64,000 nucleotides of DNA from Blastocatellia bacterium (GCA_046565505.1 JBKHYJ010000050.1:32415-96414), one strand, 5' to 3'; counted from the first letter of the stretch, positions 11,083-47,319 are shown. Numbers and translations: made by a program. Notes: generated from the sequence alone by a model not told the origin.

Positions 11083-11451
11083 CAACGCAAACTCCCGCAG
11101 GCATAAATGAATGCACAACAAAAATCAAGGAGGCCACAAGGAAGCCTCCCGAAGTCCAAAAGATATTAGCGAACCTCGGCCATTAGCCGCCGCTGGTGGT
11201 GTGACCAAAACATGGGCTCTTTCTCATCATGATTATGTACCTCCGTTTACCTACGCTAAAATTATAGGCTATCGCGAATACCGATTCAATCCGAAACGTC
11301 ACCCATGATAGTCGCCCCATACTAAAAGTCAAGACGCACTTTCGATCCCCGGCTCGCTATTAACACAAGCCACGGCGGGTGTCTTCAATCGCGAGCGGCC
11401 TGGAATTCGCGGCCCGCCGGCCTTCTGTTTTCCGCGTCCTGGCCCCCCCGG

Positions 11452-12063
11452 CTACTGGCTGCTGACCGTGAGATTGTTAACTACGCGGCGCACGCCCTTG
11501 ACGGCTTTTGCGACTTTTTCGGCGCGCGCCTTGATCTCTTCGCTTGGCACGTTACCGCTGAGAGTCGCCGTCCCGTCCGCGAATTTCACGTCAATCGGAT
11601 GCGTGCGAAGCTCCTGATCGTCCAGCAATTTCGTAGTCACATCAACCTCTATGCTCGTGTCTGTGACGGCGGGCGTGCTGGAGGTCGATGGCGCGGGGGA
11701 CGACGCGCCGGGGACGGGCACTGGGACCGGCACGGGGACCGTGGTCGGCTGCGACTGCGAAGGCGGCACGACTACGACAGGGGGTTGCTGTTGGGACGGC
11801 TGCGCCGCGGCGCGGGCCGCGTCCGCCCTGGCCCTGTCACGCTCAATCTCCAACTGGGATTCGCGGGCCTGCCGGTTGTTGTTCAGGATCATCATCGTGA
11901 TGAGCACGGCCGCCGCGATAGCGGCGATGACCAGGGCCGCGATGGCCGCGCCCGACATCCCGCGCCGCTCGTGGATCACCGAGTCATACTGAGTCTCAAC
12001 CACCGGCCGTCTTCCGACCGGCACGTCTTCGATTACTGTGCGCCTCTCTTGAATTTCAGCCAT
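11452..12063 (-). CDS. BON domain membrane protein
   Basis: TM helix, Pro-rich linker, C-terminal IDVKFADGTATLSGNV...VKGVRRVVNNLTV. Confidence 0.88.
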   Translation of the reverse strand: MAEIQERRTVIEDVPVGRRPVVETQYDSVIHERRGMSGAAIAALVIAAIAAAVLITMMILNNNRQARESQLEIERDRARADAARAAAQPSQQQPPVVVVPPSQSQPTTVPVPVPVPVPGASSPAPSTSSTPAVTDTSIEVDVTTKLLDDQELRTHPIDVKFADGTATLSGNVPSEEIKARAEKVAKAVKGVRRVVNNLTVSSQ

Positions 12064-12305
12064 TTTATTTCCTACCTTTCTCGCGCCGACGCCTGCCTCG
12101 GCTCAGATAGAGTGATATTAAAATCGCGCCGCAGTTGTATCGGAACGCGGCATAGAAAAATGACGCGCGTACCGAAACGGACCGCCGTGCGGAGCTAAAT
12201 CATAGCCCACTTCAAATTCCGCAATGTGCGTGCCGCAAAGCGGCTTCGGATTTTGGATTGCGAGTTGCGGGCATAGCCCCGTGAGTTAAACTCTGGGTAA
12301 AGGTT

Positions 12306-13025
12306 ATGAGAAGAGGTGAGCGCGGCCTGCCGGCCGACTTCCCCGGATACTTGATGCATTCGGACGAAGACACCCCCGTGCCTTCATGGGAACAGGTCAC
12401 GCGCAGCGTCGCGCGCCGAGACGAAGAGATGATTGCTCATGCCTCGCGGATAATCGCGGGCGCCGATGACGAGGCGGTCGCGCGCGCCGCCTGGGGCCTC
12501 TACCCCCCGGGCACTAAGCGGTCCGTCGCGCTGTTCGTGGATAAGATTTACGACGAAGGCTGGTTGGACGCCGTCGGTCGGATAAGGAATGCGTGGGATG
12601 GGGGCCTCTACTTTTGGCCGCGCGCGACGGCCCACGGCACGCTGCGCGACCTGCTCGACGCGAAGTCGGGCAGGGGCGGGTCTTATACATTTTGCAGCTT
12701 GCGAAATGGGCTGTTCGCCTACATCAACGCCTGGAACCACAGGGCATGGCGACTGGCATGGATGGAGACTGACGAGGCGGGCGCGGCCCTGCACGTAGGC
12801 ATCTTCAAAGATGGCTCGGCCGAGGTCCATATGGAAGTCTTCAACCCGCTCTTCATCAAGGGCGCGCCGCCCGCGGATGTCGTCCGCATCCCGCTCGTCG
12901 GCTCGTACAATCACAGGCAGTTCCTACTGCACAGGAGGTGGGAGCAGGCCGGGTACGCCGCGGTCACACGCACGTCCGCGAACTTCTACCACCTGATGCG
13001 CGGGCGCGTGCCGCTGTCGTTTTAG
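12306..13025 (+). CDS. Hypothetical protein
   Basis: 239-aa ORF with host-like codon usage; no motif recognised; start uncertain. Confidence 0.6.
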   Translation: MRRGERGLPADFPGYLMHSDEDTPVPSWEQVTRSVARRDEEMIAHASRIIAGADDEAVARAAWGLYPPGTKRSVALFVDKIYDEGWLDAVGRIRNAWDGGLYFWPRATAHGTLRDLLDAKSGRGGSYTFCSLRNGLFAYINAWNHRAWRLAWMETDEAGAALHVGIFKDGSAEVHMEVFNPLFIKGAPPADVVRIPLVGSYNHRQFLLHRRWEQAGYAAVTRTSANFYHLMRGRVPLSF

Positions 13026-20637: not shown

Positions 20638-20710
20638 GGGGCTATAGCTCAGCTGGGAGAGCGCTTGAGTGGCACTCAAGAGGTCGTCGGTTCGATCCCG
20701 ACTAGCTCCA
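20638..20710 (+). tRNA. tRNA-Ala(GGC), CCA not encoded
   Basis: GGGGCTA/TAGCTCC acceptor with G3:U70, anticodon arm CTTGA-GTGGCAC-TCAAG, GGTTCGATCC T-arm. Confidence 0.97.
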
Positions 20711-20715
20711 CTTTA
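20668..20715 (+). repeat. att repeat, left (3' half of tRNA-Ala)
   Basis: AGTGGCACTCAAGAGGTCGTCGGTTCGATCCCGACTAGCTCCACTTTA; 47/48 identical to 47221-47268. Confidence 0.95.
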
Positions 20716-20729
20716 ATTTTCAACAGGTT

Positions 20730-20760
20730 AAGGCTACCTATTGGGTAGCCTTTCTTGTTT
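20730..20760 (+). terminator. Intrinsic terminator after the tRNA
   Basis: AAGGCTACC / GGTAGCCTT stem followed by a T-rich tract. Confidence 0.75.
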
Positions 20761-20780
20761 GACAGCAATCTTGACAGCAA
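20759..20780 (+). repeat. Putative integrase arm-binding sites, left
   Basis: TTGACAGCAA twice with 12-bp period; TGACAGCA core also at 47106-47129. Confidence 0.75.
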
Positions 20781-20786
20781 CCGGTC

Positions 20787-22025
20787 TCATTTTATGCCCG
20801 TGAGGACATTATCAAGCAGATCAATGGCATCATCCTTTATTTTCGGCAGAAGGTGAGTGTAAATGTCAGCAGTAATCCGAATGCTCGAATGCCCTAAGAT
20901 TTCACTCACTACTTTTAATTCGACGCCTTGGGCGAGCAGGAGAGACGCGAAGAAGTGCCTCACATCATGCAGTCTGAAATAACGCATTCCAGAATCTCTC
21001 ATAAGTGCGTCAAGCTTTCGCCGGACGTTGCGAGGCTCGTAATAAGTGCCGAGCGAAGTACAAAAGACTAGATCATTCTCTTGCCAGTATTCAGCTTTCA
21101 ATCTCTCCTCTAATTGCCGTGTTCTGTGCTCGCGTAAAATTGGCAGTAGCGATTTTGGGATTCTCAATGTGCGGGCAGATTTCTTCGTCTTAGGTGGTTG
21201 GATAGCCAGTTTTCCTTGAAGGCGCTATAGAGTGCCGCTGACGCGCAGCATAGAGCCTTCAAAGTCTATGTCTGACCATTTGAGCGCCAGTGCTTCGCCG
21301 CGCCTCAAGCCAAGAGCGAGACCCACGCGAAAGAATGCTTCGAGTCTATCACCTTTAATCAACTCTAAGAATTTGCGGGCTTCATTAGGGTCCATAGGCT
21401 TTACCTCATGGCGCTCGACCTTCGGCGGGTCCGCGAGCAAACCAACGTTGCGAGCTACCAATCCCCAAGTCTCGGCTTTTTTTAGAGCCATTCTCAAAAC
21501 CGTGAGGCAGTATTGAACCGTTCGATTTGAAAGCAGCTTCCTTTCTCCATCTTTCCTTCTTGACTGGCTATTTTTTGCCATCAGGTTTTTAACCATTTGC
21601 TGACAGTGCTGCGGGGTCAGTTTAGCAAGTCGAATGTGTCCAAGCTCTGGGACAACATGAAGATTAATCATATGTCTGTACGAAATATATGTCGCCGGGC
21701 GGGTGGAAGGTTTAACGATATTTTCGAGCCAATTTTCGAGAAATTGTTTGACAGTTTGGGTCTCGCCGACAAGTGGCAAGCCCTGTTGCTGTTTGCGTAG
21801 TGCTGCCATCAACTGGTCGGATACCGCTTTGCGAGTTGTACCGTAAAATGTTTTCCGTCTAAGCCTTCCATTTTGATAGCCAAGATTAATTGCAGCAGCC
21901 CATCGGCCATCTTTACGCTTGTAGATCGTACCTTCGCCCTGCCCTCGCTTTCTCTTCTTGTTCGATATTAGTGAAGGATTGGTTGACCCGTTCTGATCCA
22001 ATGTGCCTTTACCCTCATTAGCCAT
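20787..22025 (-). pseudogene. Tyrosine integrase interrupted by one in-frame TAG (21225-21227)
   Basis: The two ORFs share a frame: VSGTL*RLQGKLAIQPPKTKKSARTLRIP; GLRRGE, HDVRH, LGHS and IYTH all present. Confidence 0.92.
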
Positions 22026-23297: not shown

Positions 23298-23498
23298 ATG
23301 GAAAGAATCCTATTGAAACCTACAGAAGCCGCTGAAGTGATCGGGCTTGGGCGAAGCAAGACCTATGAGCTCATCTCGAAGGGGCTGATTCCTTCAGTGC
23401 GAATTGGCAAGTCTGTGCGCGTCCCTGTTGCGGCGCTTCACAATTGGGTTGAGCAGCAGCTTCGAGAGCAACAGCAACTCAAAGGAGATAGCGTGTAA
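23298..23498 (+). CDS. Excisionase / HTH_17 DNA-binding protein
   Basis: LLKPTEAAEVIGLGRSKTYELI...IPSVRIGKSVRVP; AGGAG RBS; divergent from the integrase. Confidence 0.9.
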   Translation: MERILLKPTEAAEVIGLGRSKTYELISKGLIPSVRIGKSVRVPVAALHNWVEQQLREQQQLKGDSV

Positions 23499-23524: not shown

Positions 23525-24277
23525 ATGGGCAAAGCAGCTAGCAAATCCGAGTGCCGCGACATACAGCGACTTTATGCCACTGCTTTGACTGCTCGCGGTA
23601 AGCATCATCGGGCAAAACGCTTAGTTGATTGCGTCTTACAAGACGAAAAAAAAGAAGCCACCGGCTACCGGACTTGGAGATGTCAGCATCGCAACTGTCT
23701 CTTCTGTTGCTGGAAGTATTGGCGAACATTTATTGAAAATTATTTGCGGAAAATTAAGAGGCTTACTCGCAATGATTATCGCCTTAGTTTTCTTACTCTC
23801 ACAATTCCTAATGTACCTTCGCTTAGCCCCGAACTCTACAGAGAGTTGGCTGCTGACCTAAAGAAACTGATGCGCCGATACCCATTTAAGTGTCGAGTAG
23901 TTGGGGCAGTTGCAAGGATTGAAACCGACTTCAACCCTCACTCTCAAGACTTTCATATTCACATTCACATAATACTCATCTACAGCCAATGCATTCCTCA
24001 AAAAGAGATCGTAGAGGCTTGGACCGATGTAATGGGGCCGCATCTGAATGTTTATGAGTTGTCTGATATGCCAGGGCGTGAGAGTAAGCCTTGTGTCGTA
24101 TGGATTGAGAAGATCAAGCCAGGGACACTTAGGAAGATAGTTCGTTATGTTTTCAAATTCGAGCCATTTGAGGATGCAGAGGCGTTTGCCGAATACGATT
24201 GCGCAGTGAGGAACGTCCGGCTTGTTCAATCCTTTGGAGCATTGTTTGAACGCAATAGGAAGGCCCGGAGACATTGA
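23525..24277 (+). CDS. Rolling-circle replication initiator (HUH, Rep_1-like)
   Basis: Cys cluster, motif I FLTLT, motif II HIHIH, motif III YVFK. Confidence 0.78.
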   Translation: MGKAASKSECRDIQRLYATALTARGKHHRAKRLVDCVLQDEKKEATGYRTWRCQHRNCLFCCWKYWRTFIENYLRKIKRLTRNDYRLSFLTLTIPNVPSLSPELYRELAADLKKLMRRYPFKCRVVGAVARIETDFNPHSQDFHIHIHIILIYSQCIPQKEIVEAWTDVMGPHLNVYELSDMPGRESKPCVVWIEKIKPGTLRKIVRYVFKFEPFEDAEAFAEYDCAVRNVRLVQSFGALFERNRKARRH

Positions 24278-24420: not shown

Positions 24421-24573
24421 ATGATTCATACCCCTTCGCCTTCAAAGCCGCTCCTGTGCCCTCTGTGCGCCGATACAGGCGGGTTTATCTACATTGATGA
24501 ATCGGATAGGGACAAGGGCGTGAGGGCGTGTAGGCATGACGGGCTGGATGGCCCAACTATAGAACTTGGGTAA
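24421..24573 (+). CDS. Small Zn-ribbon protein or gene remnant
   Basis: CPLC..TGG...GVRACRH motif; ends at the IS left end. Confidence 0.35.
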   Translation: MIHTPSPSKPLLCPLCADTGGFIYIDESDRDKGVRACRHDGLDGPTIELG

Positions 24574-25130
24574 GCCACTGGTTTGACCAGTGAGACTCGA
24601 AGAGCTTTGAGCGTTGCGGTAGTCCAATAAAGGGGCGCTTATGAATGCCGGAAACTTACCACAGTTCGGCTCATTCTAAATGGAATTGCGTCTACCATCT
24701 TGTGTTCATTCCCAAGTACAGACGTAAAACTTTATTTGGAAGAATTAGAAGAGAGCTTGGACCAATCTTTCACCAGTTGGCTAGGCAGAAAGAATGCAGA
24801 ATCATTGAAGGCCACATAATGCCGGACCACGTTCATATGTGTATTGAGATTCCCCCGAAGCTCGCAGTCTCATCAGTGATTGGATACTTGAAAGGTAAAA
24901 GCGCGATAGAGATAGCTCGGAGGTTCGGAGGGAGACAGCGCAACTTCAACGGAGAATGTTTCTGGGCAAGAGGCTACGCGGTTTCAACAGTAGGGCTTGA
25001 AGTAGAAACAGTACGAGCGTACATCAGGGATCAAGAGGCGGCAGACAAAGAAGGGAGGTTTTAAAGCTAGAATAATCGACCTCTAGTCGAGTTGAAATCC
25101 GCGTTTTGCCTGATCGAAGGCAAGCGGACT
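24572..25130 (+). mobile_element. IS200/IS605-family element, TnpA only (ends approximate)
   Basis: tnpA flanked by hairpins CACTGGT-TTG-ACCAGTG (24576-24592) and TTGCCT...AGGCAA near 25110; no tnpB. Confidence 0.8.
24645..25064 (+). CDS. tnpA: IS200/IS605 Y1 transposase
   Basis: YHLVFIPKYRR, DHVH, LKGKS, FWARGY and YIRDQ motifs. Confidence 0.96.
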   Translation: MPETYHSSAHSKWNCVYHLVFIPKYRRKTLFGRIRRELGPIFHQLARQKECRIIEGHIMPDHVHMCIEIPPKLAVSSVIGYLKGKSAIEIARRFGGRQRNFNGECFWARGYAVSTVGLEVETVRAYIRDQEAADKEGRF

Positions 25131-25355
25131 GAACATGTAATTGGTGTTTGCCAGTTCATTGTCAAATAGCCGAAGGCCATGTTAAGTAAATGACTTGCAA
25201 GATGATAAGTTTCCAGCAGGAGAAGCATGCTTTTTCTAACTCTGACTTTAATGTTCTTCGCTATGCTTGCTCGCCGTGGCTTTAAAAGGCATATAGACGC
25301 ATCTGGATTCAGCTTAAAAGGATCAGTCAAAGACAAAAGAGAACGGAGGCCATCA

Positions 25356-26174
25356 ATGGTGCTCAACGGAAATGATATTGAGAGCAGACGTATAATAGAA
25401 CGCGACAGCAATACAGGCTACCGCGCGGCAAGCTATGATCTAACCGTCGGTAGAATAATCTCATCAGATGGTGAGGAGATTCCTTCTTTATGGCTCAAGC
25501 CCCAGTCCATAGTTAGAGTAATCTCTCATGAAAGGCTAAAGGTGCCTAAAAATGTAGTAGGGTTTGCTACCGTGAAAACATCTCTCTGCGATGAAGGCAT
25601 TCTGCCATTGAATATAGGTATTGTTGATCCAGGATATGAGGGCCCAATATCCACTACACTTTTAAACTTTGGTACAAGAGAGTATTTGATACGACCAGGA
25701 AGAACATTCCTTAGAGTATCATTTCATGAATATCACCAACCTGAACACATTGAACCAATTAAAATAGCTGATGAGGATTATCTTGCAGATAAAAAGATAA
25801 GAGCACAGAATTTTTCTGATACTTTTTTGAATATTTCAACTCTTGAACAAAAGGTAGCTCAAAGGATAGAGTCTGTCGAGCAAATAGTAACCACGGCGAA
25901 GAGCGAAGTAAGAGGATGGATAGGAAGAGGCATAATCATGGCAACGCTCTTATTAACCATCCTACCTTTCTTAGTTACGCTTGGTGTTGATTATACAAGC
26001 CGGACTGGTTGGACCCGCGAGCAATTCAGGTCAGAGGTTATCAACCAAGTTAGACAGGATAAAGAAAGGGAGCTTGAAACGCAGATCAAAGACCTTCAAA
26101 ATGAATTAAGAGAACTAAAGGATAGCATAAAAGCCAGAGCGCCTGAGAATAGTCAGAAAACAGGAGAGCGGTAG
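25356..26174 (+). CDS. dCTP deaminase/dUTPase-fold domain fused to a TM helix and coiled coil
   Basis: ASYDLTVG and GIVDPGYEG motifs; hydrophobic GIIMATLLLTILPFLVTLGV; GGAGG RBS before ATG 25356. Confidence 0.8.
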   Translation: MVLNGNDIESRRIIERDSNTGYRAASYDLTVGRIISSDGEEIPSLWLKPQSIVRVISHERLKVPKNVVGFATVKTSLCDEGILPLNIGIVDPGYEGPISTTLLNFGTREYLIRPGRTFLRVSFHEYHQPEHIEPIKIADEDYLADKKIRAQNFSDTFLNISTLEQKVAQRIESVEQIVTTAKSEVRGWIGRGIIMATLLLTILPFLVTLGVDYTSRTGWTREQFRSEVINQVRQDKERELETQIKDLQNELRELKDSIKARAPENSQKTGER

Positions 26175-26183
26175 AAAAGGAAA

Positions 26184-27143
26184 ATGAAGGCATTTGATTC
26201 AATAGATGAGATACAGCATGCGTTTTTGGATTCACTTTTACGTGATGGGGAAAGCGTTCAGCCTAGGGGAATGCCGACCTTAGAATTGAGCGCTATAACG
26301 TTTAAGCTTTTGAATCCGAGAAAGAGGACTATTACAAACCCGATGCGACGTTGGAGCCTGCCATTAGCTTTAGGTGAATTTTGCTGGCATGTCTCTGGCT
26401 CGAATGAGGTTTCTTTCATTGAGTATTATGCCAAGCGTTGGAGGGATTTTGCAGAGGACGGTTCAACTATACGTGGAAGTTGTTATGGGCACAAAATATT
26501 TAAGCAACCTATCGAAGGGCCGAGTCAGTGGAAAAGAATTATTAAGCTATTGCAAACTGATCGTTACTCTCGCCGAGCTATTTTGAATTTTTCTGACTTC
26601 GATTTACCCGTAGATATTACGCCAAAAGATGTATCATGTGCATGCACACTCCAATTTCTTATACGCTCAGACAAACTCCATGCTTTTGCTTATATGCGCA
26701 GTAACGACGCCATATGGGGTCTACCTTATGATGTGTTCCTGTTTACGATGCTTCAGGAACTTATGGCATTAGAACTTGGCGTAGAACCTGGTTCTTACAA
26801 TCATTTCGCCACATCACTCCACCTTTATGAGCAGCATATTCAACTTGCTAGAAGAATTGTAAGCAGTGGCGTGGATCAGTCTTTTGAAATGAAGCCTATG
26901 ATAGACCATAGGTGGCTAAGTAGATTTCTTACACTTGAATCTAGAATACGGATGGGAGAACGATTAGACTATAAAAAAGAAGTGGCACTCTTACCTGCGT
27001 TCTGGCGAGATTTAGTTGAAGTTCTTTCTTGGTTTAGGTCTACAAAGGAACTAGGCGGTCCGTCAGAAGCTGCTAGTATGATTCCCATTGATTCCCCGTA
27101 TGAGCACATCCTGCGGAATCTCACGGCTAGTTCGCTTATATAA
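26184..27143 (+). CDS. Thymidylate synthase-family protein, probable (d)CMP hydroxymethylase type
   Basis: SRR, catalytic Cys in DVSCACTLQF, MRSND...GLPYD (Asp where ThyA has Asn), SLHLY. Confidence 0.85.
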   Translation: MKAFDSIDEIQHAFLDSLLRDGESVQPRGMPTLELSAITFKLLNPRKRTITNPMRRWSLPLALGEFCWHVSGSNEVSFIEYYAKRWRDFAEDGSTIRGSCYGHKIFKQPIEGPSQWKRIIKLLQTDRYSRRAILNFSDFDLPVDITPKDVSCACTLQFLIRSDKLHAFAYMRSNDAIWGLPYDVFLFTMLQELMALELGVEPGSYNHFATSLHLYEQHIQLARRIVSSGVDQSFEMKPMIDHRWLSRFLTLESRIRMGERLDYKKEVALLPAFWRDLVEVLSWFRSTKELGGPSEAASMIPIDSPYEHILRNLTASSLI

Positions 27144-27169
27144 GATATCGAACCATGTATCAAGTGAGC

Positions 27170-27601
27170 CTACCTGGGGTAATAAGGTATGAGTTCTGTA
27201 GTCCTAAATAATGCTATGGGCCCATCTTTCTTGGCTTGAAATCCCACTCGACCTTGAGGCCCGCCGAATTGATAAATCCAATCTAAACAGCTACCACATG
27301 GCGTAAACCTTTCCCTTTCAGCAACTATAAGAATCCCCGCCAATTCTATATGGCCTGCGGCAACCATACTTGTTATAGCATTTACTTCTGCGTGTACATC
27401 ATGGCTACGGAAAACATGCTCAACGTTACAACCTGCGAAAATTTTGCCATTGGATGACATTACAGCCGCGCCTACTTTTACTTCACCCATAATATACGCC
27501 CGTTCCCTGCATTCCCACGCAGCTTCGGCCAATATATTCCAGTGTTCTTCAGTAAACTCAAATTCTTCGTAAGTCATTTTCTTTTCGTGAAGAGCAGACA
27601 T
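27170..27601 (-). CDS. Cytidine deaminase family protein
   Basis: VGAA, GCNVE, HAE and PCGSC zinc motifs. Confidence 0.9.
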   Translation of the reverse strand: MSALHEKKMTYEEFEFTEEHWNILAEAAWECRERAYIMGEVKVGAAVMSSNGKIFAGCNVEHVFRSHDVHAEVNAITSMVAAGHIELAGILIVAERERFTPCGSCLDWIYQFGGPQGRVGFQAKKDGPIALFRTTELIPYYPR

Positions 27602-27720
27602 CCTCCCCTTAGAAGATATATCAACAATTCATACACCGAGAATATCAGCAATGGAAGAAACCGTATAGGTTAAGCGCAAAATCTAAACGCAATGGTGTTC
27701 CTTTGTTATCCATAGGCTCT

Positions 27721-30700
27721 CTAATTCTCCTGTAGTTTAGCCAGTAGCCCCTCACGACGTAGGGTAAGTACGCGCACAATATGGCTATCTATATTTTCAT
27801 CTGCTACAAGTTCAGTGCAGATCGAGCGCAAAGCTTTCCATAACATAGTGGATTCGTAATTTTCGTATTCTACAGGAATATGGTTTAACAACGATTCAGA
27901 GACGACAACGATTAGTCTTTGCTGCGTACGCGAAAACGCGACATTTGAACGATTCAGATCAAGAATGAACTTTGCACTAGCACCAATGGCTGCTGGATCG
28001 CTTGCTGTCCCTGAAACAAAAACAGTCGGGCGCTCACCTCCTTGTAAGCGTTCAACAGTGTCAATTACATCGACGGATTTGCTGAACCGGGAAAGGCGCG
28101 TTTGTAACAGCGTTCTTTGCGCTCTATGTGGTGTTACTATCGCGATAGAGTTGCTGGGACGCTCACCACCCGCATCCAATATGCGCTCGATAATGTTGAC
28201 CTCGATCTCATTACTTTGTTTTGACTCCCGTTCATTGTGTGAAACTAGATATAACCCCGTTTCACCTTCCCATACACTTTGCCAAGCATTCACACTTTCG
28301 CCGGGGACCAAGGGTAGCGCATTCCCCATTGGTGGTCCTTGCAATTCAATTTCATCCAGACGGTAAAGACGACTGATGAGTTCACGTATTTCGGCGGGAA
28401 GCCTAAAGGTATAACAAAGGCTAGAAAGCAAAATGGCTTCGTCAGGTATTGGAGTGCCCACAGAAATATTTCTTTTTATACGCTGTACGGCTTCGTACGC
28501 ACTAACAAAGGGCTGGTATAGAACAACTGGTGGGCGGTCTTCGCGGTCCCAATCGTGCGCCACTATCGGTGCAAGCTGTCGGTGGTCACCAGTCAGCATA
28601 ATCTCACCGTCAGGTTGCACAAGAGTTGCCAGTGCAAGAAAATCTGGGAAGACCATCATGCTAGCTTCATCAAGAATGAGCAGCGGGACTTGAAAGCCAT
28701 GTTTGAAGTCCGCACTTATATCAAGCTTTCTCACCATCTTTAAAATGGCACCCGTTGTCCCGCCTATAATTAGAATGGCATCCTTTCGCAAGTTCTTCAC
28801 GGTCGAAGCGGCTTTATCAGCAGCAAAATCTTCTATGTTGCCACTTGTAGGATCATATGCGCTGCTGGATTGAACCTTGCTTAGTTTTGTAGGAGGCATA
28901 GTCAATCCATTATCCATCACATACTTAGAAAAATCAGGCAGTAGTTCATCAACCTTTTTGAGTAGAGTGTTAATAGCTGTATGTGTATTCGCTGCTATTA
29001 AGACAATGTCCCTTACTTGGCGTTTCGCCAAAATTCGCAACAAGGTAGCTACGGACGAAGTAGTTGTCTTTCCCGTTCCTGGAGGGCCTTGCAAAAGCTG
29101 GATTTTGGTTGTTAGTCCGTTAACAACAGCTTTTCGCTGATCTTCCTGCAGGTTTTTTCCGGCAGGTGGCACAGGAAGGTTTTGCAACAAGGAGTCGTAA
29201 GTAGCAAGCATTGTTGCTGTCGGGGGGGTGATGGCTGGCACAATCGGTGACTGCGAATTAAACCAATCATAGGCATGGCTTCCTAAACGAGAACTGAGTC
29301 TATCATCAACATGCCCGCGTACAAAATCTGACGGGCTCTCATCAATAGTGGCGTGCGTAATTTTCATTCTGCTTTGGTCTCTAAAATCGGCGCTCTGTAA
29401 AATATATCGTGAAGCGTCCTTGCGCGGAATAACTGAAAGCCTAATCTGGCGGCTTGCCCAATCAACTCCATCAATAATGCAGTTGCTACCATACCTCATT
29501 AGCATACTGAATGTTTGCCCGGTATGCGGATCGGCGTGCGAAACAGTTAGTCTTACAAAATCACCTTCTACGAAACCACATCTAGACTCAAGCGCGCTGT
29601 AATTAATGTCATAACCGGACAAGTCAATGGAAGCCAAAAGTCTATTCGGACTTGTAACTCTAATGTTGGTAATAGGGATCGTTCTACCTTTCGGAACTCT
29701 AGCCGCTGGTGGCACAAGATGAGCGGCGATCCATTCTGTTGTGGCTACATGACGGTCTAGCCGCAAAAAATCTATTGCAGCCCGTGCTGGATCATTTACA
29801 CCCAGTGTGAAACTTTGCAATTCCGCAATGTTCATGAGAGGCTTGGTTATTTCATCATTCTTGAACCGTATGTTCTCTTCTACCCAGCGAAGTGCATGAA
29901 CACGTGCACGAAAATACTCTTCTAAATGCCTAGGTTTCGCAGCTTGATTATAACGTTCAATTGCACTACGTACAGGCGGGATAATTCCCGGTTTACTGGC
30001 ATCCAGTTGCCCCCAATAAGCCCGCCAATAAGGAGCGGTTAGCGAATCACTAAACCGGCTGCGGATTTCAAATTTATATGGTGTCGCGGACTCGCCGTCC
30101 TTAGCCCAAGTGTTATCAGATTTCAAACGGAGGGTGGTTTTAAAATCGAAAATGTCCTGTTCGAATATACGGTCAAGTTCCACATCGCGGCCTGCAATCT
30201 TTCGCACCCAGTGATAACGTCGCCCGTACCACAAAAGAGAAGAAACAACGGCTAGCCCTCTACCCGTCCAACCAAGTGCGTAGCGATGATCAACTTCGTC
30301 TTTAAGCGAAGAATAGATAAGCTGTTCAAGGCTATCCCTACAGCCAAGTAACTCGCGTAAATGCCCTAGCAAACCGGAACCCACACGAGAACAAGCCTCA
30401 ATAAGACGCGCAATTTCAGATTTCGACCAAACATAGAAATGAATCGGTGCGAAATCCGTTGCAGCAACTTCGGCAATAACATCAATTAGCTTGCGCAAGA
30501 AACCTTGAATTATCTCACGCTCAGAGCCAGTATCCTCATCATAACGGCCAGTCCACTGCGAGGACTTGAATTCAATAACTTCATGACTTATAAGCGCTCT
30601 TTTCTCATAAATCGGTTTCTTTGTTGTATAATCAACCCCTGTAACAAACCTTTCTTTTACTTCCGAATCATAAATCCACCTCTTGTTTTGGCTATCCCAA

Positions 30701-31935: not shown

Positions 31936-33366
31936 CTATTCAGCACGGAACGAAACTGATGGCGGTACGATCCGTACTGTAGAAAGATTGCTTCTTTGAA
32001 TAAAGAGGGCTTCACTAGCTTGCTTTTCAGCACTTGCTAGGAGTGAAGGGGTTTCGAAGAGCCTTTTGGCTATTTCTTTGACTACCTCAACATGGACGGC
32101 ATTGCCCAAAGCCTTAAATGCTGCTGTGCGTGATTCAGGAAGAATATGATCATCGCTAAAGCCTTGTAACCGTAATGCTTCTATGCGGGTTATAAAACGG
32201 CGTTCTGGTCCTAGTATCGGAATCTGCGTATTCGTCATAGAAACGAGTGTAGGAATTGTCGAGTACCGTTTTACACGTAACCCAGAAGGCCGGAACTGGA
32301 GGACATGATCCCACAAATCCCTTTTCTCACCATTACAATTCCATTCAAATTTTCTGAGTGATAAAGGAAAGGTGCGAAGTTTCGTAATCCATTTCTTGGT
32401 AAAGAAGCGGCGGTGTTTAGTGAGCCATTCGCGGTTCTGCCTTATGAATTGGATTTTCCACTTTGGGAACTTCTCTTCCTTCGACTGAGCATAGCTTGGA
32501 AGCAGTTTGAACAATTGTTCGTGTATGAGATCATGAACATAGTCAGGATGTGCATTTAAGGCCAATTTTAAGGCTCCTGTGGTCATCAGGTAGGGTGTGT
32601 GTTCTTCAAATCTGTATCTAGCATCTAACTCATCACACCATATAGGAAAAGAGGGAAGCTCAACTTCATGAGATATGCGCTTTAGCAACAGATTCCAATG
32701 TTCAATGCATTCCAGTTGCTGTTGAGAGAGTTTTGATTCCTCTCGGTGCATCTTTTTTAATTCGCGCGAGCGCTGGACAATGGTGGCGAGAGTTGTTTCG
32801 CGATAGCGATCAATATCGGGAAAAAGATTTTCAGGAAGTGGTTTGCCACTTCGGGCGACTATATAAAACCTCTCCCTTGTGTGCGGATAGCCTAGATGAT
32901 GCGGTGAAAGCAATCCGTTCCCACCACTGTTAACGTGCTCAGTACCTTTAACACAGTAGTCCAAATTTTCGAGTGCTTGTTTAACTACTTTCCAGGTACG
33001 TCCATTGTCATGCCTTTGAAAGTTACCTACGTTTTCAAGGATTATATACTCAGGCTTGTGCTTTTTCAGAATCTTTATGATTTCATGAAAAAGCGTCCCA
33101 TGTATCTGGTCATCCATACCTTTTTGAGAGCCACTTTTTGAGAAGGGCTGACAGGGAAAACCCGCACATAGGATATCGTGTGCAGGCACTTCATTTCTGT
33201 GCTTACGGATATCACCCACACTCTTGCTCGCCGTGGCAGGAAAGTTCTGACAGTAGAGTTCTCGAAGCTCATCTTGAATTTCTGAAGCGAATACACATTC
33301 GTGGCCGAGTTGGCTTAAAGCAACATGAAAGCCGCCGAGTCCGGCAAAAAGATCAACAAATCTCAT
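31936..33366 (-). CDS. dcm: DNA (cytosine-5)-methyltransferase
   Basis: FAGLGG, GFPCQ, ENV, RER, RLQGF and GNAV; AAGGAGG RBS before ATG 33366. Confidence 0.95.
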   Translation of the reverse strand: MRFVDLFAGLGGFHVALSQLGHECVFASEIQDELRELYCQNFPATASKSVGDIRKHRNEVPAHDILCAGFPCQPFSKSGSQKGMDDQIHGTLFHEIIKILKKHKPEYIILENVGNFQRHDNGRTWKVVKQALENLDYCVKGTEHVNSGGNGLLSPHHLGYPHTRERFYIVARSGKPLPENLFPDIDRYRETTLATIVQRSRELKKMHREESKLSQQQLECIEHWNLLLKRISHEVELPSFPIWCDELDARYRFEEHTPYLMTTGALKLALNAHPDYVHDLIHEQLFKLLPSYAQSKEEKFPKWKIQFIRQNREWLTKHRRFFTKKWITKLRTFPLSLRKFEWNCNGEKRDLWDHVLQFRPSGLRVKRYSTIPTLVSMTNTQIPILGPERRFITRIEALRLQGFSDDHILPESRTAAFKALGNAVHVEVVKEIAKRLFETPSLLASAEKQASEALFIQRSNLSTVRIVPPSVSFRAE

Positions 33367-33388
33367 ACTCCTCCTTAGGCTTTCCGTT

Positions 33389-33862
33389 TCAACTTGTAAG
33401 TGCCTTGTTTTTATGTCGGCGAGCGTCAACCGCACTCTTTATTAAAGCAGCCGCAGCCTCTGGGTCTCGGAGAATATCGGTTTCCCAGAGACGAATAACA
33501 TGCCAGCCAGCTTCTTGCAACCTGGATGTATTTCGTATGTCGCGCTCAATGTTACTTGCTATCTTGGCAGACCAATATGTTGCGTTTGTACCTTGCTCAA
33601 GCTTAGACTTGAGCGTCTGCCATTTGCGACCGTGCCAAAAGTCACCATCGCAAAATACAACTACCCGCACGCCTGAAAAGACAATGTCTGGTTTTCCTGG
33701 TAAAGTCTCTACATTCTTTCTAAATCGAAGGCCAAGCCGCCATAGTTCGCGCCGCAGTAATACTTCATGTTTAGTATCGCGCCGCCGATTACTACGCTTG
33801 ACCTGGGAACTCGCAGCCGATGCAGGCTTAAATCCAGTGAAGGAGGGGACCTTCCTTGCCAT
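33389..33862 (-). CDS. vsr: Very short patch repair endonuclease
   Basis: DTKHE, LPGKPDI, DGDFWHG and IRLWE motifs; adjacent to the C5 methyltransferase. Confidence 0.95.
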   Translation of the reverse strand: MARKVPSFTGFKPASAASSQVKRSNRRRDTKHEVLLRRELWRLGLRFRKNVETLPGKPDIVFSGVRVVVFCDGDFWHGRKWQTLKSKLEQGTNATYWSAKIASNIERDIRNTSRLQEAGWHVIRLWETDILRDPEAAAALIKSAVDARRHKNKALTS

Positions 33863-34203
33863 TCCTAACCCTGTGTGAGTCTCATCACGGGGCAAAGTGT
33901 ATAATGATTATTGGAAGTTGCCAAGATATTTCAGCAAGTTTAGATGTCCTTCTTAAACAACCCTGTCCCAATTCTGATTTAAGGACGGGGGAGAACTAGT
34001 AGTTGTGCATTTGTTGGATAAGTTAACGGGCAATCATGTACGGACTGAAAACGGACTCAGTAATAGATGAGTCGAATCTCCCGGTGGCCTTAGACTGTGC
34101 TTTTGAGGGGCGTCTCACCATGAAGCGCGCATGATAGACTTATAGAAAGAGCAGCAAAGCAAATTTTTCACGTTTTTCCCGCAGTCGCGCCCTTGCTGAA
34201 TTC

Positions 34204-34557: not shown

Positions 34558-34941
34558 TCACTTCCTTTTTGCGGCTGCAATCAGGCTCTCAAGCTTGCGC
34601 TCTGGCGTTACCAGCAGAACAATGACTGCCAACTCCACTCGCTTGAAGAAAGCGGCTATACGCTTGCTACTATTCACGCGCTCGCGCTTGAGAGTGGAGT
34701 ATGTAGCTGAAGTCTCACCGCTAACCCATTCGAGTTCTGACAGCAAGTAATCGCCCTTTCGCCTATCACACGCAGAGCATGAGGCAGCCAGGTTGAAAGT
34801 CGCGTTCGTTCCCCCTCTCGATGTAGGGATGATGTGATCTATCACAAGCTTTGACGAGTCGAACACTTTTCCGCACAGGTAGCAGGTTGACTTGTCTCGC
34901 TCAATTATCTCATCTCGCCTCAACTGGCCGGGGCCGCTCAT
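34558..34941 (-). CDS. HNH endonuclease
   Basis: RD..TCYLCG...IDHIIP..RGG...NL...CSACDRRKG. Confidence 0.85.
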   Translation of the reverse strand: MSGPGQLRRDEIIERDKSTCYLCGKVFDSSKLVIDHIIPTSRGGTNATFNLAASCSACDRRKGDYLLSELEWVSGETSATYSTLKRERVNSSKRIAAFFKRVELAVIVLLVTPERKLESLIAAAKRK

Positions 34942-40133: not shown

Positions 40134-41315
40134 TTATTCTGGCACCTTTGGGCTTACTTTCCTTCCATCTTCTGTTCTCAAGTGCTCGCTGATTGTATCT
40201 TTTAGTTGGAATCTAAGGTCTTCCAGATTTTCAGGAGTATACATAATGGTACGTATATCTCTAATATCAAATGGAAGTGGGCTGTTATCTGCTGATAGTT
40301 GAATGACTGGTTTATTAAGCACATGGGCCAATCCTAGTTCGTAGAATACATTCGGATTCATTCCCGTCAAGTCAGCCACTACAAGACGGGCATACCGAAT
40401 ATCGTTAAATATCTGATTCATAATCCTGCCGGTTAACTTTACCTCATCAGCTCGAACAGGAATCAGTCCGTTATCGTATATGGCATCTTTTATTGCTATG
40501 TTCCACACATCTGGTCTAACAATCTCTGAACTGAAGGGCATAACAACAAAAACATAGTCTTCTTCGTATCGAGGAGCATGAGTGAGCTTAAAATAATCAA
40601 ACTCTGCAACAGTGAGAGGAATAGCTTTTCTCATGATCCCAAAATAGCCTTTATGTTGATCGTCAAAGATTGAAGAGGTCGTAACATCTACTGGCACCCT
40701 CTGACCATTCGAGTGGAGGCGCACTGTGTTGTAGCGGCAGTGTGATCTAGGCTTGGCTCTGAGTTCTCCTAGAATTTCATCAACCTCTTTACATAAATCA
40801 TCTGGCACCAAGAATTTTCTAATGTCTCTTCCACGTACCTCTTCTCGGTTGAACCCAAAGAGCTTTTCTGCCCCAGCGTTCCATAATACTACTCGACCTG
40901 ATGGATCGAGTATTCCGATTGCGTCCCAGGTAAGCTCAACAAACTTAGAGAAGTTAATCCACTCCCTTTCCTCCCTTAACGCCTCCGTTGCACGATTTAC
41001 TATCCTATAGAACCAAATGGCAGAAAAAAGGACTAATCCTTTGATTGATGTGACGAACCAAGGATGTCGCAAAAACTCTTCCAGAGGTTTGTGAACGACA
41101 CGCGCAATATTTACGATGGCCCAATATATCGAATCTATAACGAGGGTGGTAGCAACAATCCGAAAGGCCTTCTGAATTTGAGAATAACTTGTTGAGTCAA
41201 TAATTGGTTTCCGAGCTTTCAGCACCTCCCCAGTTCTGCTCCATACGACGAGCCAAAACACAACAAGTAGAATATAAACAATAATCTGGGCATATTCAGC
41301 AATAGTATATGACAT
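40134..41315 (-). CDS. Three TM helices + PAS + nucleoside 2-deoxyribosyltransferase-like (TIR/NDT) domain
   Basis: PAS DAI..LD..G....WNAGAEKLFG; FVVMPF, RAD, ADLTGMNPNVFYELG and LPFD motifs. Confidence 0.85.
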   Translation of the reverse strand: MSYTIAEYAQIIVYILLVVFWLVVWSRTGEVLKARKPIIDSTSYSQIQKAFRIVATTLVIDSIYWAIVNIARVVHKPLEEFLRHPWFVTSIKGLVLFSAIWFYRIVNRATEALREEREWINFSKFVELTWDAIGILDPSGRVVLWNAGAEKLFGFNREEVRGRDIRKFLVPDDLCKEVDEILGELRAKPRSHCRYNTVRLHSNGQRVPVDVTTSSIFDDQHKGYFGIMRKAIPLTVAEFDYFKLTHAPRYEEDYVFVVMPFSSEIVRPDVWNIAIKDAIYDNGLIPVRADEVKLTGRIMNQIFNDIRYARLVVADLTGMNPNVFYELGLAHVLNKPVIQLSADNSPLPFDIRDIRTIMYTPENLEDLRFQLKDTISEHLRTEDGRKVSPKVPE

Positions 41316-41394
41316 TCAGGATTTACTCTCCTTTTTCGAACATCAGTAATTTATGCGAAGCGGAGGGAGTTGATGAATCTACTAATACTCTTAA

Positions 41395-42033
41395 CTAAGG
41401 CTTGTGCAACCCTTTTTGTATAATGAATTCGCGACCTTTACCCACATCAATATTAATGGGCACTCCTTTATTGCATAGTGGGCAACCGTCTTCATCCCAA
41501 GTATCTAATGAAAGCTCAAGGAGGCTACATAGCTTTGGTGGATTGCCAACTTGATCAATGGTAACGTCGCCACGATTGCATAGAGCAGCAGCTCCTATTA
41601 CTATTCCACCATTGATACGAACAGCCTGGATCACCTCTTTAAGCGACGCACCTGTAGTTAGTACATCCTCAACAATGAGTACTCGTTTATCTTTAAGTAG
41701 TTGATCATAACCTCGACGAAAGATGAAGGATCCTTGCTCTCCTTTTTCAGCGTAAATAGCAAGTACAATATGGCCTTTCGTCGATAAGTGATAAGCAACC
41801 CATTGTGAAAGTATCACACCACCGATTGCTGGTGCCGCCACGATTTCTATCGCATCTTTAGTAAATTGCGCTGCAATTTCTTGGCAGAGTGAGGAAACCG
41901 CACGCGTATTGGGATAGATTGCATCTTTATTAATATACGTACTCCCATGCTTGCCTGATGTATATACAACATGTGTATCTCTGATTATGGCTTTATGTTG
42001 TTCTAAAACTCTTACTGCGTCTATATTTTTCAT
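41395..42033 (-). CDS. pyrE: Orotate PRTase-like protein (island copy)
   Basis: HVVYTSGKHGSTY, PAIGG, FRRGY, VEDVLTTGAS and CPLC. Confidence 0.8.
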   Translation of the reverse strand: MKNIDAVRVLEQHKAIIRDTHVVYTSGKHGSTYINKDAIYPNTRAVSSLCQEIAAQFTKDAIEIVAAPAIGGVILSQWVAYHLSTKGHIVLAIYAEKGEQGSFIFRRGYDQLLKDKRVLIVEDVLTTGASLKEVIQAVRINGGIVIGAAALCNRGDVTIDQVGNPPKLCSLLELSLDTWDEDGCPLCNKGVPINIDVGKGREFIIQKGLHKP

Positions 42034-42526
42034 ATTTCGTCCCTTTGAAACATTAATCTAGTTGACTATCAGAGTTATTTATTGGCCATTTCCTTAAATT
42101 ACCGTTAGGGATGACAAACCCTGAACGGTTACCTACAGATAGTTATAAATAGATTTATCCAACACCAGATTGTTCGTTAGGTGCGTTGACTGTAATGCTC
42201 AGCACCCCTTTTGTCAATTGAAACGCTTGGCCAGTAAGAGAATGTATTTATTAGGCCAGGATAGCGAAACACTCTGGCTGCCTTGCCCTAAATTCACTGC
42301 TATATAAGGAGTATTACTTATAAAAAGCAGGTTAGTATCTACTTTTCGGCATATTATAATCTGTTATAGTACAGTTGTTTTTAGCAAATCGCTCAAATAT
42401 GGTTTAAATGACTCTGTATAAGCAACAGAGTTAGACGCCACCTAACAAGCAGAGGCAGCGGAGCAATCGCCAATTGCGAATAGTAACAATTATACCCACA
42501 CCAAAAGCTGTTAGCCGCCCATCGAG

Positions 42527-42604
42527 CGCCCAACGCCCTGGCTTATATGCTCTTGTGATGTGACACTGATGTTTGTCGAGGAGGCGACGGCTGTGGTGAT
42601 GTAA
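42527..42604 (+). repeat. Diverged copy of 39561-39634 (3' end of the small Cys gene)
   Basis: Translates as RPTPWLICSCDVTLMFVEEATAVVM* versus RST-WLICSCGEVLMFVEDAAAVM*. Confidence 0.85.
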
Positions 42605-42629
42605 ATCTAGTCACCAGTTTAGTTTGAGC

Positions 42630-42735
42630 TTGACAGGAAATCTCTTTAGAGTATTATTAGGAGCTAAAGCTCCTAAAAGACCTAAAAGTTTTCATGGTCT
42701 TAAAGGTCTCATAGGAGTTTAAAGAGTTCTAGGCG
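42630..42735 (+). promoter_or_regulatory. Sigma70 promoter followed by a 9-bp periodic repeat array
   Basis: TTGACA-16-TATTAT, then CTAAAGCTC CTAAAAGAC CTAAAAGTT TTCATGGTC TTAAAGGTC TCATAGGAG TTTAAAGAG. Confidence 0.65.
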
Positions 42736-42807
42736 CTAGCGCTGTCGAAGTTTTTGGGGTGAGTACCGGGCTTCTTACACTAGTTGATAGCAGAGGAGGG
42801 TTGACGG

Positions 42808-47220: not shown

Positions 47221-47268
47221 AGTGGCACTCAAGAGGTCGTCGGTTCGAGCCCGACTAGCTCCACTTTA
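47221..47268 (+). repeat. att repeat, right (displaced 3' half of tRNA-Ala)
   Basis: 47/48 match to 20668-20715; the mismatch is in the T-loop (TTCGAGC versus TTCGATC). Confidence 0.95.
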
Positions 47269-47319
47269 GAATCAACCAGATACGGGCAGCCTTCGGGTTG
47301 CCTTTTCTATTTTGTGTGC

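Follow-up and report, generated by a model that had tools for sequence, protein, structure and literature searches.

A mobile bacterial gene module combining a membrane-anchored Dcd/Dut-fold protein with predicted dCMP-converting enzymes and often found next to C5-methyltransferase/Vsr cassettes

The DNA analysed in this work is a 64,000-nucleotide stretch from a Blastocatellia bacterium (GCA_046565505.1 JBKHYJ010000050.1:32415-96414), referred to below as the window, and its subject is a pair of adjacent genes located there on a genomic island. The first gene encodes a protein with the fold of the deoxycytidine triphosphate (dCTP) deaminases and trimeric dUTPases (Dcd/Dut fold) followed by a transmembrane (TM) helix, and is called here Dcd-TM. 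The second encodes a protein of the thymidylate synthase (TS) fold and is called TS-like. A cytosine deaminase gene, a large nuclease-helicase gene and the genes of a C5 cytosine DNA methyltransferase (MTase), a very-short-patch repair endonuclease (Vsr) and a small HNH endonuclease follow on the opposite strand (Table 1). It is well supported by the comparisons described below that the pair belongs to a horizontally mobile module, which acts on deoxycytidine (dC) nucleotides and is usually attached to a C5-MTase/Vsr restriction-modification (R-M) cassette. The constant member of the module is, judged from sequence but with good support, a membrane-anchored protein of the trimer-type Dcd/Dut fold that binds a pyrimidine deoxynucleotide. 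Equally well supported is that its partner is an enzyme converting deoxycytidine monophosphate (dCMP) irreversibly: a predicted C5-hydroxymethylase resembling MilA, a cytosine deaminase, or both. This nucleotide-centred module was previously unnamed.

Table 1. Coordinates of the module, its neighbours and the island ends, counted from the first letter of the window
Feature	Position	Strand	Evidence and remarks
Dcd/Dut-fold protein with TM helix (Dcd-TM), 272 aa	25356..26174	+	Pfam DCD, PDB, family alignment
MilA-like TS-fold enzyme (TS-like), 319 aa	26184..27143	+	PDB 5b6d/5jnh, Pfam PF00303
Cdd-type cytosine deaminase, 143 aa, HAE and PCGSC zinc motifs	27170..27601	-	Pfam PF00383 E 6.9e-14
PD-(D/E)XK nuclease and SF1 helicase, 1395 aa	27721..31908	-	Pfam PDDEXK_1, AAA_11/12/30
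C5 cytosine DNA methyltransferase	31936..33435	-	PF00145 E 1.2e-65; TIGR00675 210 bits vs cut-off 100.65
Vsr very-short-patch repair endonuclease	33389..33895	-	Pfam Vsr E 2e-23; PADLOC Vsr E 3.1e-21; overlaps start of MTase gene
Small HNH endonuclease, candidate restriction nuclease	34558..34941	-	Pfam HNH_5 E 6.2e-14; upstream of Vsr
IS200-type Y1 transposase	24645..25064	+	Pfam Y1_Tnp E 4.5e-37; directly upstream of the pair, neighbour outside the module
attL, 3' part of tRNA-Ala	20668..20761	+	direct repeat of 47221-47314; bounds island
attR, copy of the 3' part of tRNA-Ala	47221..47314	+	direct repeat

The open reading frame (ORF) of Dcd-TM spans 25227-26174 (+) and contains an internal ATG at 25356. 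GGAGG is found 8 nt upstream of this ATG, a start at this site is common to most of 38 aligned Dcd-TM relatives, and the gene most likely begins there. The TS-like ORF follows on the same strand after 9 bp, and the deaminase gene, convergent with the pair, is the last gene of the Vsr/MTase/helicase strand. The island is 26.5 kb long and is inserted at a tRNA-Ala gene (20638-20711), with a split tyrosine integrase beside it. Its GC content is 0.41-0.50 vs. about 0.60 in the flanks, and the repeats at its ends are 77% identical over 94 nt and near-identical in the first 48 nt. A preliminary description of this DNA had spoken of a two-gene arrangement with a 9-bp gap in island cargo, which is borne out by the ORF coordinates, the drop in GC and the tRNA repeat; the motifs it quoted from the two proteins were all found in the translations. 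Scanning of 24500-28000 for promoters and terminators gave nothing informative, and promoter-like sites were fewer than in shuffled sequences. Among the listed sequencing runs containing the stretch there was none of RNA, only a DNA run from a soil metagenome, which may be its source.

A pattern scan of 185,579 species genomes identified 20 Dcd-TM loci, which fall in Acidobacteriota, Binatota and Pseudomonadota, and a metagenome scan added 73 more. By tblastn, 16 of the 20 genome loci have a TS-like gene directly downstream on the same strand. Clustering of the Dcd-TM proteins at 90% identity or more (single linkage, some clusters loose) yielded 65 clusters including the window; four are cut by contig ends and 61, from at least three phyla, could be evaluated downstream. 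With local profiles the gene directly downstream of Dcd-TM was found to be TS-like in 50 of the 61, whereas a cytosine deaminase takes the place of the TS-like gene in eight and neither is present in three (L010, L074, L096). The distance between the Dcd-TM and TS-like genes spans -8 to +192 bp (median 9 bp), with at most 41 bp in 46 of 48 clusters. Chance is far from sufficient to account for the pairing, and the same gene order in 50/61 non-redundant loci agrees with the earlier proposal of a conserved, functionally linked pair. The family comprises 396 representatives at 50% identity (E at most 1e-30) among 1.84 billion environmental sequences. It is present in culturable alphaproteobacteria, natural carriers being Neorhizobium huautlense DS1307, Aminobacter niigataensis DSM 7050 and Roseibium marinum DSM 17023. 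Conjugative or integrative elements (with TrwB, a TraI-like protein or integrases) harbour several of the loci, and Dcd-TM was found on one plasmid among 72,556.

Wider neighbourhoods were compared in the 24 clusters with at least 3 kb of sequence upstream and at least 4 kb downstream (long clusters). A PF00383 deaminase gene adjoins the module in 14 of these, placed after the TS-like gene, divergently upstream, or directly after the Dcd-TM gene. Cytosine deaminase is thus a third recurrent member, absent from the preliminary description. Most module deaminases are ComEB-like proteins of about 160 aa with HAE and PCxxC motifs and without a kinase-like domain; their similarity to models of anti-phage dCTP deaminases is to the deaminase portion of these (NF041025; PDLC02373, E 1e-22 to 1e-25). 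The deaminases of L001 and of the window are Cdd-like; that of the window scores 68.9 bits with the NCBIfam cytidine deaminase model NF004064, below the cut-off of 74, and 28 bits with a profile built from the deaminases of related loci. The use of two unrelated deaminase types, i.e. non-orthologous replacement, argues that the activity itself is under selection. The comparison revealed no further conserved neighbour family: the other clusters of neighbouring ORFs were antisense shadow ORFs of genes already recognised, except an HNH gene in three loci, and the adjacent ORFs without Pfam assignment in L007, L008, L009, L018 and L020 had no family match at E 0.01.

In one Acidobacteriota metagenome-assembled genome (MAG) the TS-like gene lies in two frames (L019:8745-9663) and the deaminase is also in two pieces; the two-frame TS-like gene points to a frameshift or an assembly error.

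The TS-like protein belongs to the TS superfamily (Pfam PF00303, 83.4 bits vs. a gathering cut-off of 24.3) and falls below the cut-offs of all ThyA equivalog models, the best score being 62.6 bits vs. 327. Its closest solved relative is MilA, the cytidine monophosphate (CMP) 5-hydroxymethylase of the mildiomycin pathway (PDB 5b6d, 5jnh, 5jp9; E 6.6e-47 with 5b6d/5jnh over residues 26-296), followed by ThyA (E 2.9e-14), and chains of the T4 dCMP hydroxymethylase (dCH) are not among the best 60 of its 126 PDB matches. In MilA the catalytic residues are described to be Glu68, Cys155, His216 and Tyr218, and cytosine is selected by Asp186, which is Asn in enzymes acting on deoxyuridine monophosphate (dUMP) and Asp179 in T4 dCH; the ribose-selecting residues are Lys133' and Ala176, deoxy-specific enzymes have Arg and Ser in their place, and the A176S/K133R replacement turns MilA to dCMP (PMC5175136). 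The TS-like protein of the window has Glu65, the catalytic Cys152, Arg130/131, Arg172-Ser173-Asn174-Asp175, Asp183, His213 and Tyr215, with the motifs YMRSNDA and GLPYD. All 11 scored catalytic and specificity residues are kept in 43/43 TS-like homologues encoded beside a Dcd-TM gene. The fold and the Cys, Glu, His/Tyr and Asp residues are common to MilA and these proteins. They differ at the ribose-selecting positions: the Lys133/Ala176 state of the MilA/BcmA-type CMP hydroxymethylases is replaced in 43/43 by Arg/Ser (Arg130/Ser173), as in the A176S/K133R mutant. At the position of E. coli ThyA Asn177 there is Asp183, also in 43/43. A further difference is the genetic setting, an antibiotic cluster for MilA and a restriction island for TS-like.

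The similarity to MilA, the presence of all catalytic residues and the Arg/Ser/Asp deoxycytidylate signature, which is that of a C5-hydroxymethylase or methylase, together lead to the prediction that TS-like is an active enzyme modifying C5 of dCMP, probably a hydroxymethylase. The preference for hydroxymethylation over methylation is due solely to the nearest characterised relatives being hydroxymethylases. The view that the TS homologue is of the cytosine-selecting Asp type and makes a 5-modified cytidylate is thus still the best prediction, now for the deoxy form.

These features bear on the possibility that the genes serve ordinary pyrimidine metabolism as spare ThyA, Dcd and Cdd, or belong to a MilA-type pathway of a 5-hydroxymethylcytosine (5hmC) antibiotic. 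The family names, MilA as the closest characterised relative, and a nucleoside 2-deoxyribosyltransferase-like domain (MilB fold) encoded 13 kb away at 40134-41315 would all fit. All equivalog models are, however, far under their cut-offs, and Asp183 with the Arg/Ser pair excludes by the MilA criteria a preference for dUMP or CMP. In addition, the partner Dcd fold lacks the Glu discussed below, no conserved glycosidase stands beside the pair, and for the protein of 40134-41315 a TIR effector model is the better match (PADLOC, E 6e-11). The host genome has its own canonical ThyA (424.6 bits), Dcd and Dut elsewhere, and these together with the differing signature residues led us to reject spare housekeeping enzymes as an explanation. 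Taken as a whole, metabolism or antibiotic synthesis appears very improbable.

Dcd-TM is a member of the Dcd/Dut superfamily (Pfam DCD, 39.3 bits vs. a cut-off of 27), and it falls short of the equivalog models for Dcd (TIGR02274, 55.2 vs. 92.8 bits) and for trimeric dUTPase (TIGR00576, 23.8 vs. 102.55 bits). Its best PDB matches are 9ln0 (E 3.9e-10) and, with a profile, 8y1w (E 1.4e-19). The motifs AASYDL, VKTSLCDEG, GIVDPGYEG and ISTTLLNF can be recognised. When aligned to E. coli Dcd, both through a neighbouring canonical Dcd domain and through 4xjc, R110 corresponds to K74, S111 to T75, R115 to D79 and the Glu residue E138 to T101. We gathered 192 relatives and counted residues in the 178 that have at least 230 aa, omitting 14 shorter ones. 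None of the 178 has Glu at the E138 position, and Arg at the R115 position occurs in 15, where most of the relatives have Asn. The sequences show in this way that Dcd-TM cannot deaminate, and the low equivalog score together with the changes at Glu138 and Arg115 removes it from the dCTP deaminases, as the earlier claim of a degenerate deaminase had held.

That claim went further and regarded the fold as inactive, which is more than the sequences show. The motif-3 Asp (D91) is kept in 176/178 relatives, a basic residue (Lys or Arg) at motif-2 position 74 in 177/178 and Y142 in 158/178, while N104, R120 and F157 are invariant. The five Dut motifs include the motif-3 Asp, the Arg and Gln of motif 4 and the P-loop-like arm of motif 5. 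Dcd-TM has no canonical motif 5; it has the invariant Phe157 on its C-terminal arm instead. The Glu is likewise missing from the closest known structures, chains of 155-156 aa that were deposited as dCTP deaminase (8y1w and 9ln0); archaeal Dcd-like proteins of this size are dUTPases, and the same may apply to these two entries. The pocket and the Phe-bearing arm are, as judged from these counts, under strong selection. The retained motif-3 Asp and motif-2 basic residue and the invariant N104/R120/F157 point to a working nucleotide site. Compared with Dcd, the bifunctional DCD-DUT and Dcd-like dUTPases (1xs1, 1ogh, 8y1w/9ln0), Dcd-TM has the same fold, YDL, motif-3 DPGY and LxN strand, and differs in the missing Glu, in the new invariant residues R120 and F157 and in a C-terminal TM helix with coiled coil, present in 178/178. 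The nucleotide-binding domain, predicted to be cytoplasmic, would comprise approximately residues 1-165, and a homotrimer is expected from the fold.

In a Pyrinomonadaceae MAG the module is directly preceded by a gene for a 726-aa protein (L001:5281-7461, +). The Dcd domain at the C-terminus of this protein has retained the catalytic Glu (GCITLEIVN; E 1e-22 with E. coli Dcd), and the approximately 520 aa of its N-terminal part have no assigned family. It could be a large fused dCTP deaminase.

The TM helix and coiled-coil ending noted in the preliminary description are present throughout the family. In the window protein residues 193-211 are hydrophobic (mean Kyte-Doolittle value 2.48), and the tail behind the helix (226-272, 47 aa) has 10 Lys/Arg, 11 Asp/Glu and a heptad-like Ile/Leu pattern. 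A comparable hydrophobic window was found in 178/178 relatives and a second one in none; the tails are 25-106 aa long, with a median of 65. Lys and Arg are more frequent in the 15 residues before the helix than in the 15 after it in 131/178, with the reverse in 18/178. The single hydrophobic window and this bias fit a nucleotide-binding domain in the cytoplasm that is joined by one TM helix to a coiled coil on the other side of the membrane, and the tail is thus probably periplasmic. A search among longer proteins for Dcd/Dut-like domains fused to other effector domains found none, which is weak evidence.

The association of the module with C5-MTase/Vsr cassettes was not part of the preliminary description. 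A C5-MTase and/or Vsr is encoded in the fetched flanks of 14/24 long clusters; Vsr and MTase were each found in 13 of them. Broken down by partner the figures are 9/12 for loci with TS-like and deaminase, 4/9 for TS-like alone, 1/2 for deaminase alone and 0/1 for neither. In L002, L003, L033 and L047 the genes form a tight same-strand string in the order MTase-(HNH)-Vsr-Dcd-TM-TS-like-deaminase, with the HNH gene between MTase and Vsr in L002, L003 and L047. In L004, L011 and the window it is the deaminase gene that adjoins the MTase/Vsr genes on their strand. The MTases are not of one lineage, that of the window being only about 27-31% identical to those of the other loci, and the accompanying nucleases vary as well (HNH, NaeI, AspBHI/Mrr-like, UvrD-PD-(D/E)XK), together with a MORC-like ATPase. 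An N6/N4 MTase was found beside the module in only 1/20 Pfam-scanned loci. On pSymA of S. meliloti KH46 the deaminase-only form stands beside Vsr and MTase. Among carrier genomes without adjacent Vsr, 7/10 have Vsr elsewhere vs. 3/14 control genomes. The link is not absolute: the carrier genome G403 has neither Vsr nor PF00145, and G404 and G405 have MTase but no Vsr. In the window the neighbouring cassette has the components of a type II R-M system of 5-methylcytosine (5mC) type with Vsr, namely C5-MTase, Vsr and candidate nucleases.

These observations would be explained if the module served nucleotide hygiene in genomes with 5mC, as an MTase accessory and not as an immune effector. Dcd-TM would then hydrolyse 5-methyl-dCTP arising from the turnover of methylated DNA and the deaminase would convert 5-methyl-dCMP or 5-methyl-dC to dTMP or thymidine, which would prevent ectopic 5mC beyond the reach of Vsr repair. 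The higher frequency of the cassette in loci with both partners than with TS-like alone, the deaminase in or beside the MTase/Vsr string, the cassettes of the deaminase-only loci and of pSymA, the Vsr genes elsewhere in carriers and the rarity of N6/N4 MTases are all as expected from this. It leaves, however, the commonest and perfectly conserved partner without a role: TS-like needs an unsubstituted C5, therefore it cannot act on 5-methyl-dCMP. Neither the membrane anchoring nor the carriers without Vsr, one of them also without PF00145, are accounted for, and we regard this explanation as improbable.

Regarding the window's own cassette, the 1395-aa protein encoded between MTase and deaminase has an N-terminal Cas4-like PD-(D/E)XK domain and a C-terminal Upf1/DNA2-like helicase of superfamily 1 (SF1). 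It matches the PADLOC MkoA-like model with E 3.3e-33, and its score with the NCBIfam PLuB helicase-like model is far under the cut-off. Tblastn found no match to it beside the module in L001-L020, thus it is specific to the window; it is possibly a restriction component. In L006 (10055-12818) genes of a C5-MTase and Vsr adjoin the module, and directly beside them is the gene of a restriction enzyme with AspBHI-N and Mrr-cat domains; a gene whose product ends in a DrmE C-terminal domain comes next. The AspBHI-N/Mrr-cat family cleaves DNA in a 5mC-dependent manner.

We consider it moderately probable that the module serves conflict or defence in some way and does so through dC nucleotides. As to how it would work, our preferred reading, to which we assign a probability of roughly 0.3, is a gated dCTP-type pyrophosphatase with enzymes serving as dCMP sinks, i.e. 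T4 chemistry used for defence. The pyrophosphatase activity, the gating by TM helix and tail and the sink logic are what we infer from the comparisons. Dcd-TM would convert dCTP to dCMP and pyrophosphate, its lid being coupled through the TM helix to the periplasmic coiled coil, and an envelope or infection cue would switch it on. The partner enzymes would act as sinks converting dCMP to 5-hydroxymethyl-dCMP (hm-dCMP), dUMP or 5-hydroxymethyl-dUMP (hm-dUMP), which host kinases would not recycle to dCTP. During phage replication the dC pool would be drained or loaded with wrong bases, and the chemistry of T4 dCTPase, dCMP hydroxymethylase and dCMP deaminase would be turned on the invaders, beside cytosine-specific restriction. 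The scheme further presumes, in line with general knowledge of T4, that healthy cells contain little dCMP and that hm-dCMP is a poor substrate of host kinases. Such a pyrophosphatase would release dCMP, on which all the partners would act, and the loci with TS-like, with deaminase or with both then become variants of one scheme. The ComEB-like deaminases, being kin of a known depletion effector, support depletion as well.

The T4 precedent comprises the Cd protein, a dCMP deaminase, and a dCTPase whose fold we take to be unrelated to the Dcd/Dut fold. In the T4 cascade dCTPase is followed by dCMP hydroxymethylase and by the phage deoxynucleoside monophosphate (dNMP) kinase (PMC6400193). Activities of the dCTPase, dCMP hydroxymethylase and dCMP deaminase kinds would be combined in the module too, with hm-dCMP again as the predicted product. 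The module differs in being encoded by bacterial islands without a conserved kinase or glucosyltransferase nearby, and in having a pyrophosphatase-like member of Dcd/Dut fold with a TM helix.

The parallel with the T4 dCTPase/dCH/Cd set could also mean that the mobile element puts 5hmC or 5-hydroxymethyluracil into its own or the host's DNA at the nucleotide level, either as protection from the restriction enzymes of new hosts or as a self label read by the restriction system of the element. The location of several loci on conjugative or integrative elements is compatible with this, and so is the company of related TS-like genes. In the phylum of the window the TS-like protein occurs in 3/401 genomes, the window's genome counted; the two further copies, which share the Ser/Asp signature at 34-35% identity and have no Dcd-TM, are each followed by an aGPT-Pplase3/ADDT gene of DNA hypermodification, with an IrrE/M78 peptidase gene in the flank (L105:1468-3424 and L106:423-2397). 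These two loci represent machinery of the thymidine-hypermodification type in bacterial chromosomes. Self-modification is hard to reconcile with the lack of a conserved dNMP kinase, glycosyltransferase or other extra gene near the module, it would make a C5-MTase pointless on hmC DNA, and it leaves the membrane anchor unexplained. Nor were homologues found in viruses: a search of IMG/VR (2.9 million viral contigs) for Dcd-TM gave 60 pattern matches, none of them confirmed, and 50,697 phage records gave four weak partial matches to ordinary dUTPases, none covering more than 45%. A phage-borne pathway was rejected on the same ground, and self-modification by the element is in our view quite improbable.

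Several points weigh against the gated pyrophosphatase. In motif 4 the Gln is replaced by the invariant R120 and the Arg has been lost from the conserved positions, in motif 1 Asn takes the place of Asp in 20/178 relatives, and with these and the changed R115 equivalent the phosphate-binding residues are altered to an extent that hydrolysis may be lost. A soluble enzyme would be enough for depletion, and a TM helix present in every relative is no less compatible with an effector. In motif 2 there is Thr when the partner is TS-like and Asn in the deaminase-only clades, a difference not predicted if dCTP is the common substrate; as the deaminase-only loci sit in two starred clades of a quick tree, with few independent events, this co-variation is a lead only. 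The sister TS-like genes beside aGPT-Pplase/ADDT point to DNA modification and not to depletion, and the link to C5 methylation in particular is unexplained. PADLOC has no model for the two core proteins, and for no member has an activity, a regulation or a phage phenotype been reported.

The remodelled phosphate site and the universal membrane part are what would be expected from signalling, the preliminary interpretation in refined form, in which the module would work with a modified pyrimidine in a way similar to Kongming. The hydroxymethylase and/or deaminase would make a bait dNMP (hm-dCMP, hm-dUMP or dUMP), which only a phage dNMP kinase together with the host nucleoside diphosphate kinase could raise to the triphosphate. 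A non-hydrolysing trimer would bind the triphosphate, its C-terminal lid would close, and the TM helices and coiled coil would damage or depolarise the membrane, resulting in abortive infection. The constancy of Dcd-TM next to an exchangeable nucleotide-modifying partner resembles generator/effector pairs, and the motif-2 Thr/Asn state follows the partner type. There are described precedents for the two halves of the receptor: KomB, a non-canonical NTP pyrophosphatase, reads deoxyinosine triphosphate (dITP; PMC13454610; bioRxiv 2024.12.20.629578), and in Cam1 a ligand-binding domain on a TM helix depolarises membranes (PMC10808066). On the other hand, a trimer would have just three TM helices, one from each chain, and short tails, which makes a minimal effector, and no sensor-like domain fused to other effectors was found in the search mentioned above. 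Moreover, the catalytic-type Asp and the Dut-like lid are kept, a single family would have to read two chemically different products (hm-dC vs. dU), the Thr/Asn co-variation is confined to two clades, and the C5-MTase/Vsr link is left unexplained here too. Signalling appears to us only slightly less probable than the gated pyrophosphatase. It fits the same data as the gated pyrophosphatase, and neither explains the 5mC link, whereas the hygiene model does. Explanations that we have not thought of take up the remaining probability.

It is useful to compare the module with Kongming itself (KomA deaminase, KomB sensor, KomC SIR2). In both cases a base-modifying enzyme stands beside a protein with the fold of an NTP pyrophosphatase, and the Kongming trigger is described to depend on phage nucleotide kinases (PMC13454610; bioRxiv 2024.12.20.629578). 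Kongming uses the purine chemistry of dITP, a HAM1 fold and a SIR2 NADase without homology to the module, and no adenosine deaminase, HAM1 or SIR2 homologues were found in or beside the module. The resemblance is confined to the logic, and by analogy Kongming is a possible template for the way the module works. A more specific version, which we think rather unlikely, is a pyrimidine counterpart of Kongming covering a blind spot of cytosine-specific restriction. The host would continually make hm-dCMP or hm-dUMP as a bait, which its own kinases would ignore, and a broad phage dNMP kinase, or a flood of dCMP from host-DNA degradation, would yield the 5-substituted deoxynucleoside triphosphate (dNTP). 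A pseudo-dUTPase trimer would read this dNTP, and coupling from lid to TM helix to coiled coil would lead to membrane failure and abortive infection. If true, this would be the first immune messenger made by an enzyme of the TS fold and the first immune receptor of the dUTPase fold.

Regarding known defence systems, PADLOC-DB 2.0 gave no model match for the Dcd-TM and TS-like proteins of the window, L003 and L013, which upholds the earlier statement that no named system has this pair; the only match of module genes was the partial one of the ComEB-like deaminases to PDLC02373. In the published literature searched we found neither the combination of a TM-anchored Dcd/Dut-fold protein with a TS-like enzyme or deaminase nor its link to Vsr described. 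The ComEB-like deaminases match models of anti-phage dCTP deaminases (AvcD) over the deaminase domain, and depletion of dC nucleotides is described as the logic of this defence (bioRxiv 2021.04.26.441389). The module deaminases score 67 vs. a cut-off of 400 bits, however, that of the window is of Cdd type, and the core pair is different. The DefensePredictor report describes a validated E. coli defence system with a TS domain and predicted systems with dUTPase and aGPT-Pplase domains (PMC13092281). The domain sets named in the portion of that text used for comparison (dNMP kinase, 5-hmdU kinase, NMAD) differ from that of the module, and its 'dUTPase' example may match.

If the module is protective, it would represent a new use of nucleotide chemistry in bacterial immunity, with a TS-fold enzyme and a membrane dUTPase-fold protein acting on the dC pool. 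The link to 5mC restriction and Vsr hints either at restriction add-ons against phages that hide their cytosines or at nucleotide hygiene for methylated genomes, and with either outcome two enzyme folds that are among the best studied would gain a new biological role. The predicted dCMP-specific hydroxymethylase could be used for making 5-hydroxymethyl-dC nucleotides. The occurrence of the module in culturable alphaproteobacteria makes it directly testable.

Some further observations concern neighbouring genes. Just downstream of the module on the conjugative element of L002 there is a gene (10997-12607, -) for an adenylosuccinate synthetase-like protein fused to a P-loop kinase-like domain (AAA_33/AAA_18), which adjoins DUF7002 and M78 peptidase genes. 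On the island of the window the integrase gene (20787-22025, -) consists of two ORFs of 266 and 126 aa, and another integrase fragment (47320-47862, -) lies just beyond attR, ahead of tRNA-Glu (49170-49244), which suggests decay and/or tandem islands. The island also encodes a small, excisionase-like helix-turn-helix protein (23298-23498) and a Rep_1 rolling-circle replication protein (23525-24277, +). A second nucleotide-flavoured cargo cluster occupies 40134-47029 of the same island. It starts with the above TIR-like protein, in which a PAS domain is combined with the TIR-like/nucleoside 2-deoxyribosyltransferase-like part, and further comprises a phosphoribosyltransferase, two ORFs without family (43083-43556 and 43556-44251), a 578-aa NAD-binding/E1-like protein and a protein of the orotidine monophosphate decarboxylase family. 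This cluster may be another defence or nucleotide-modifying system.

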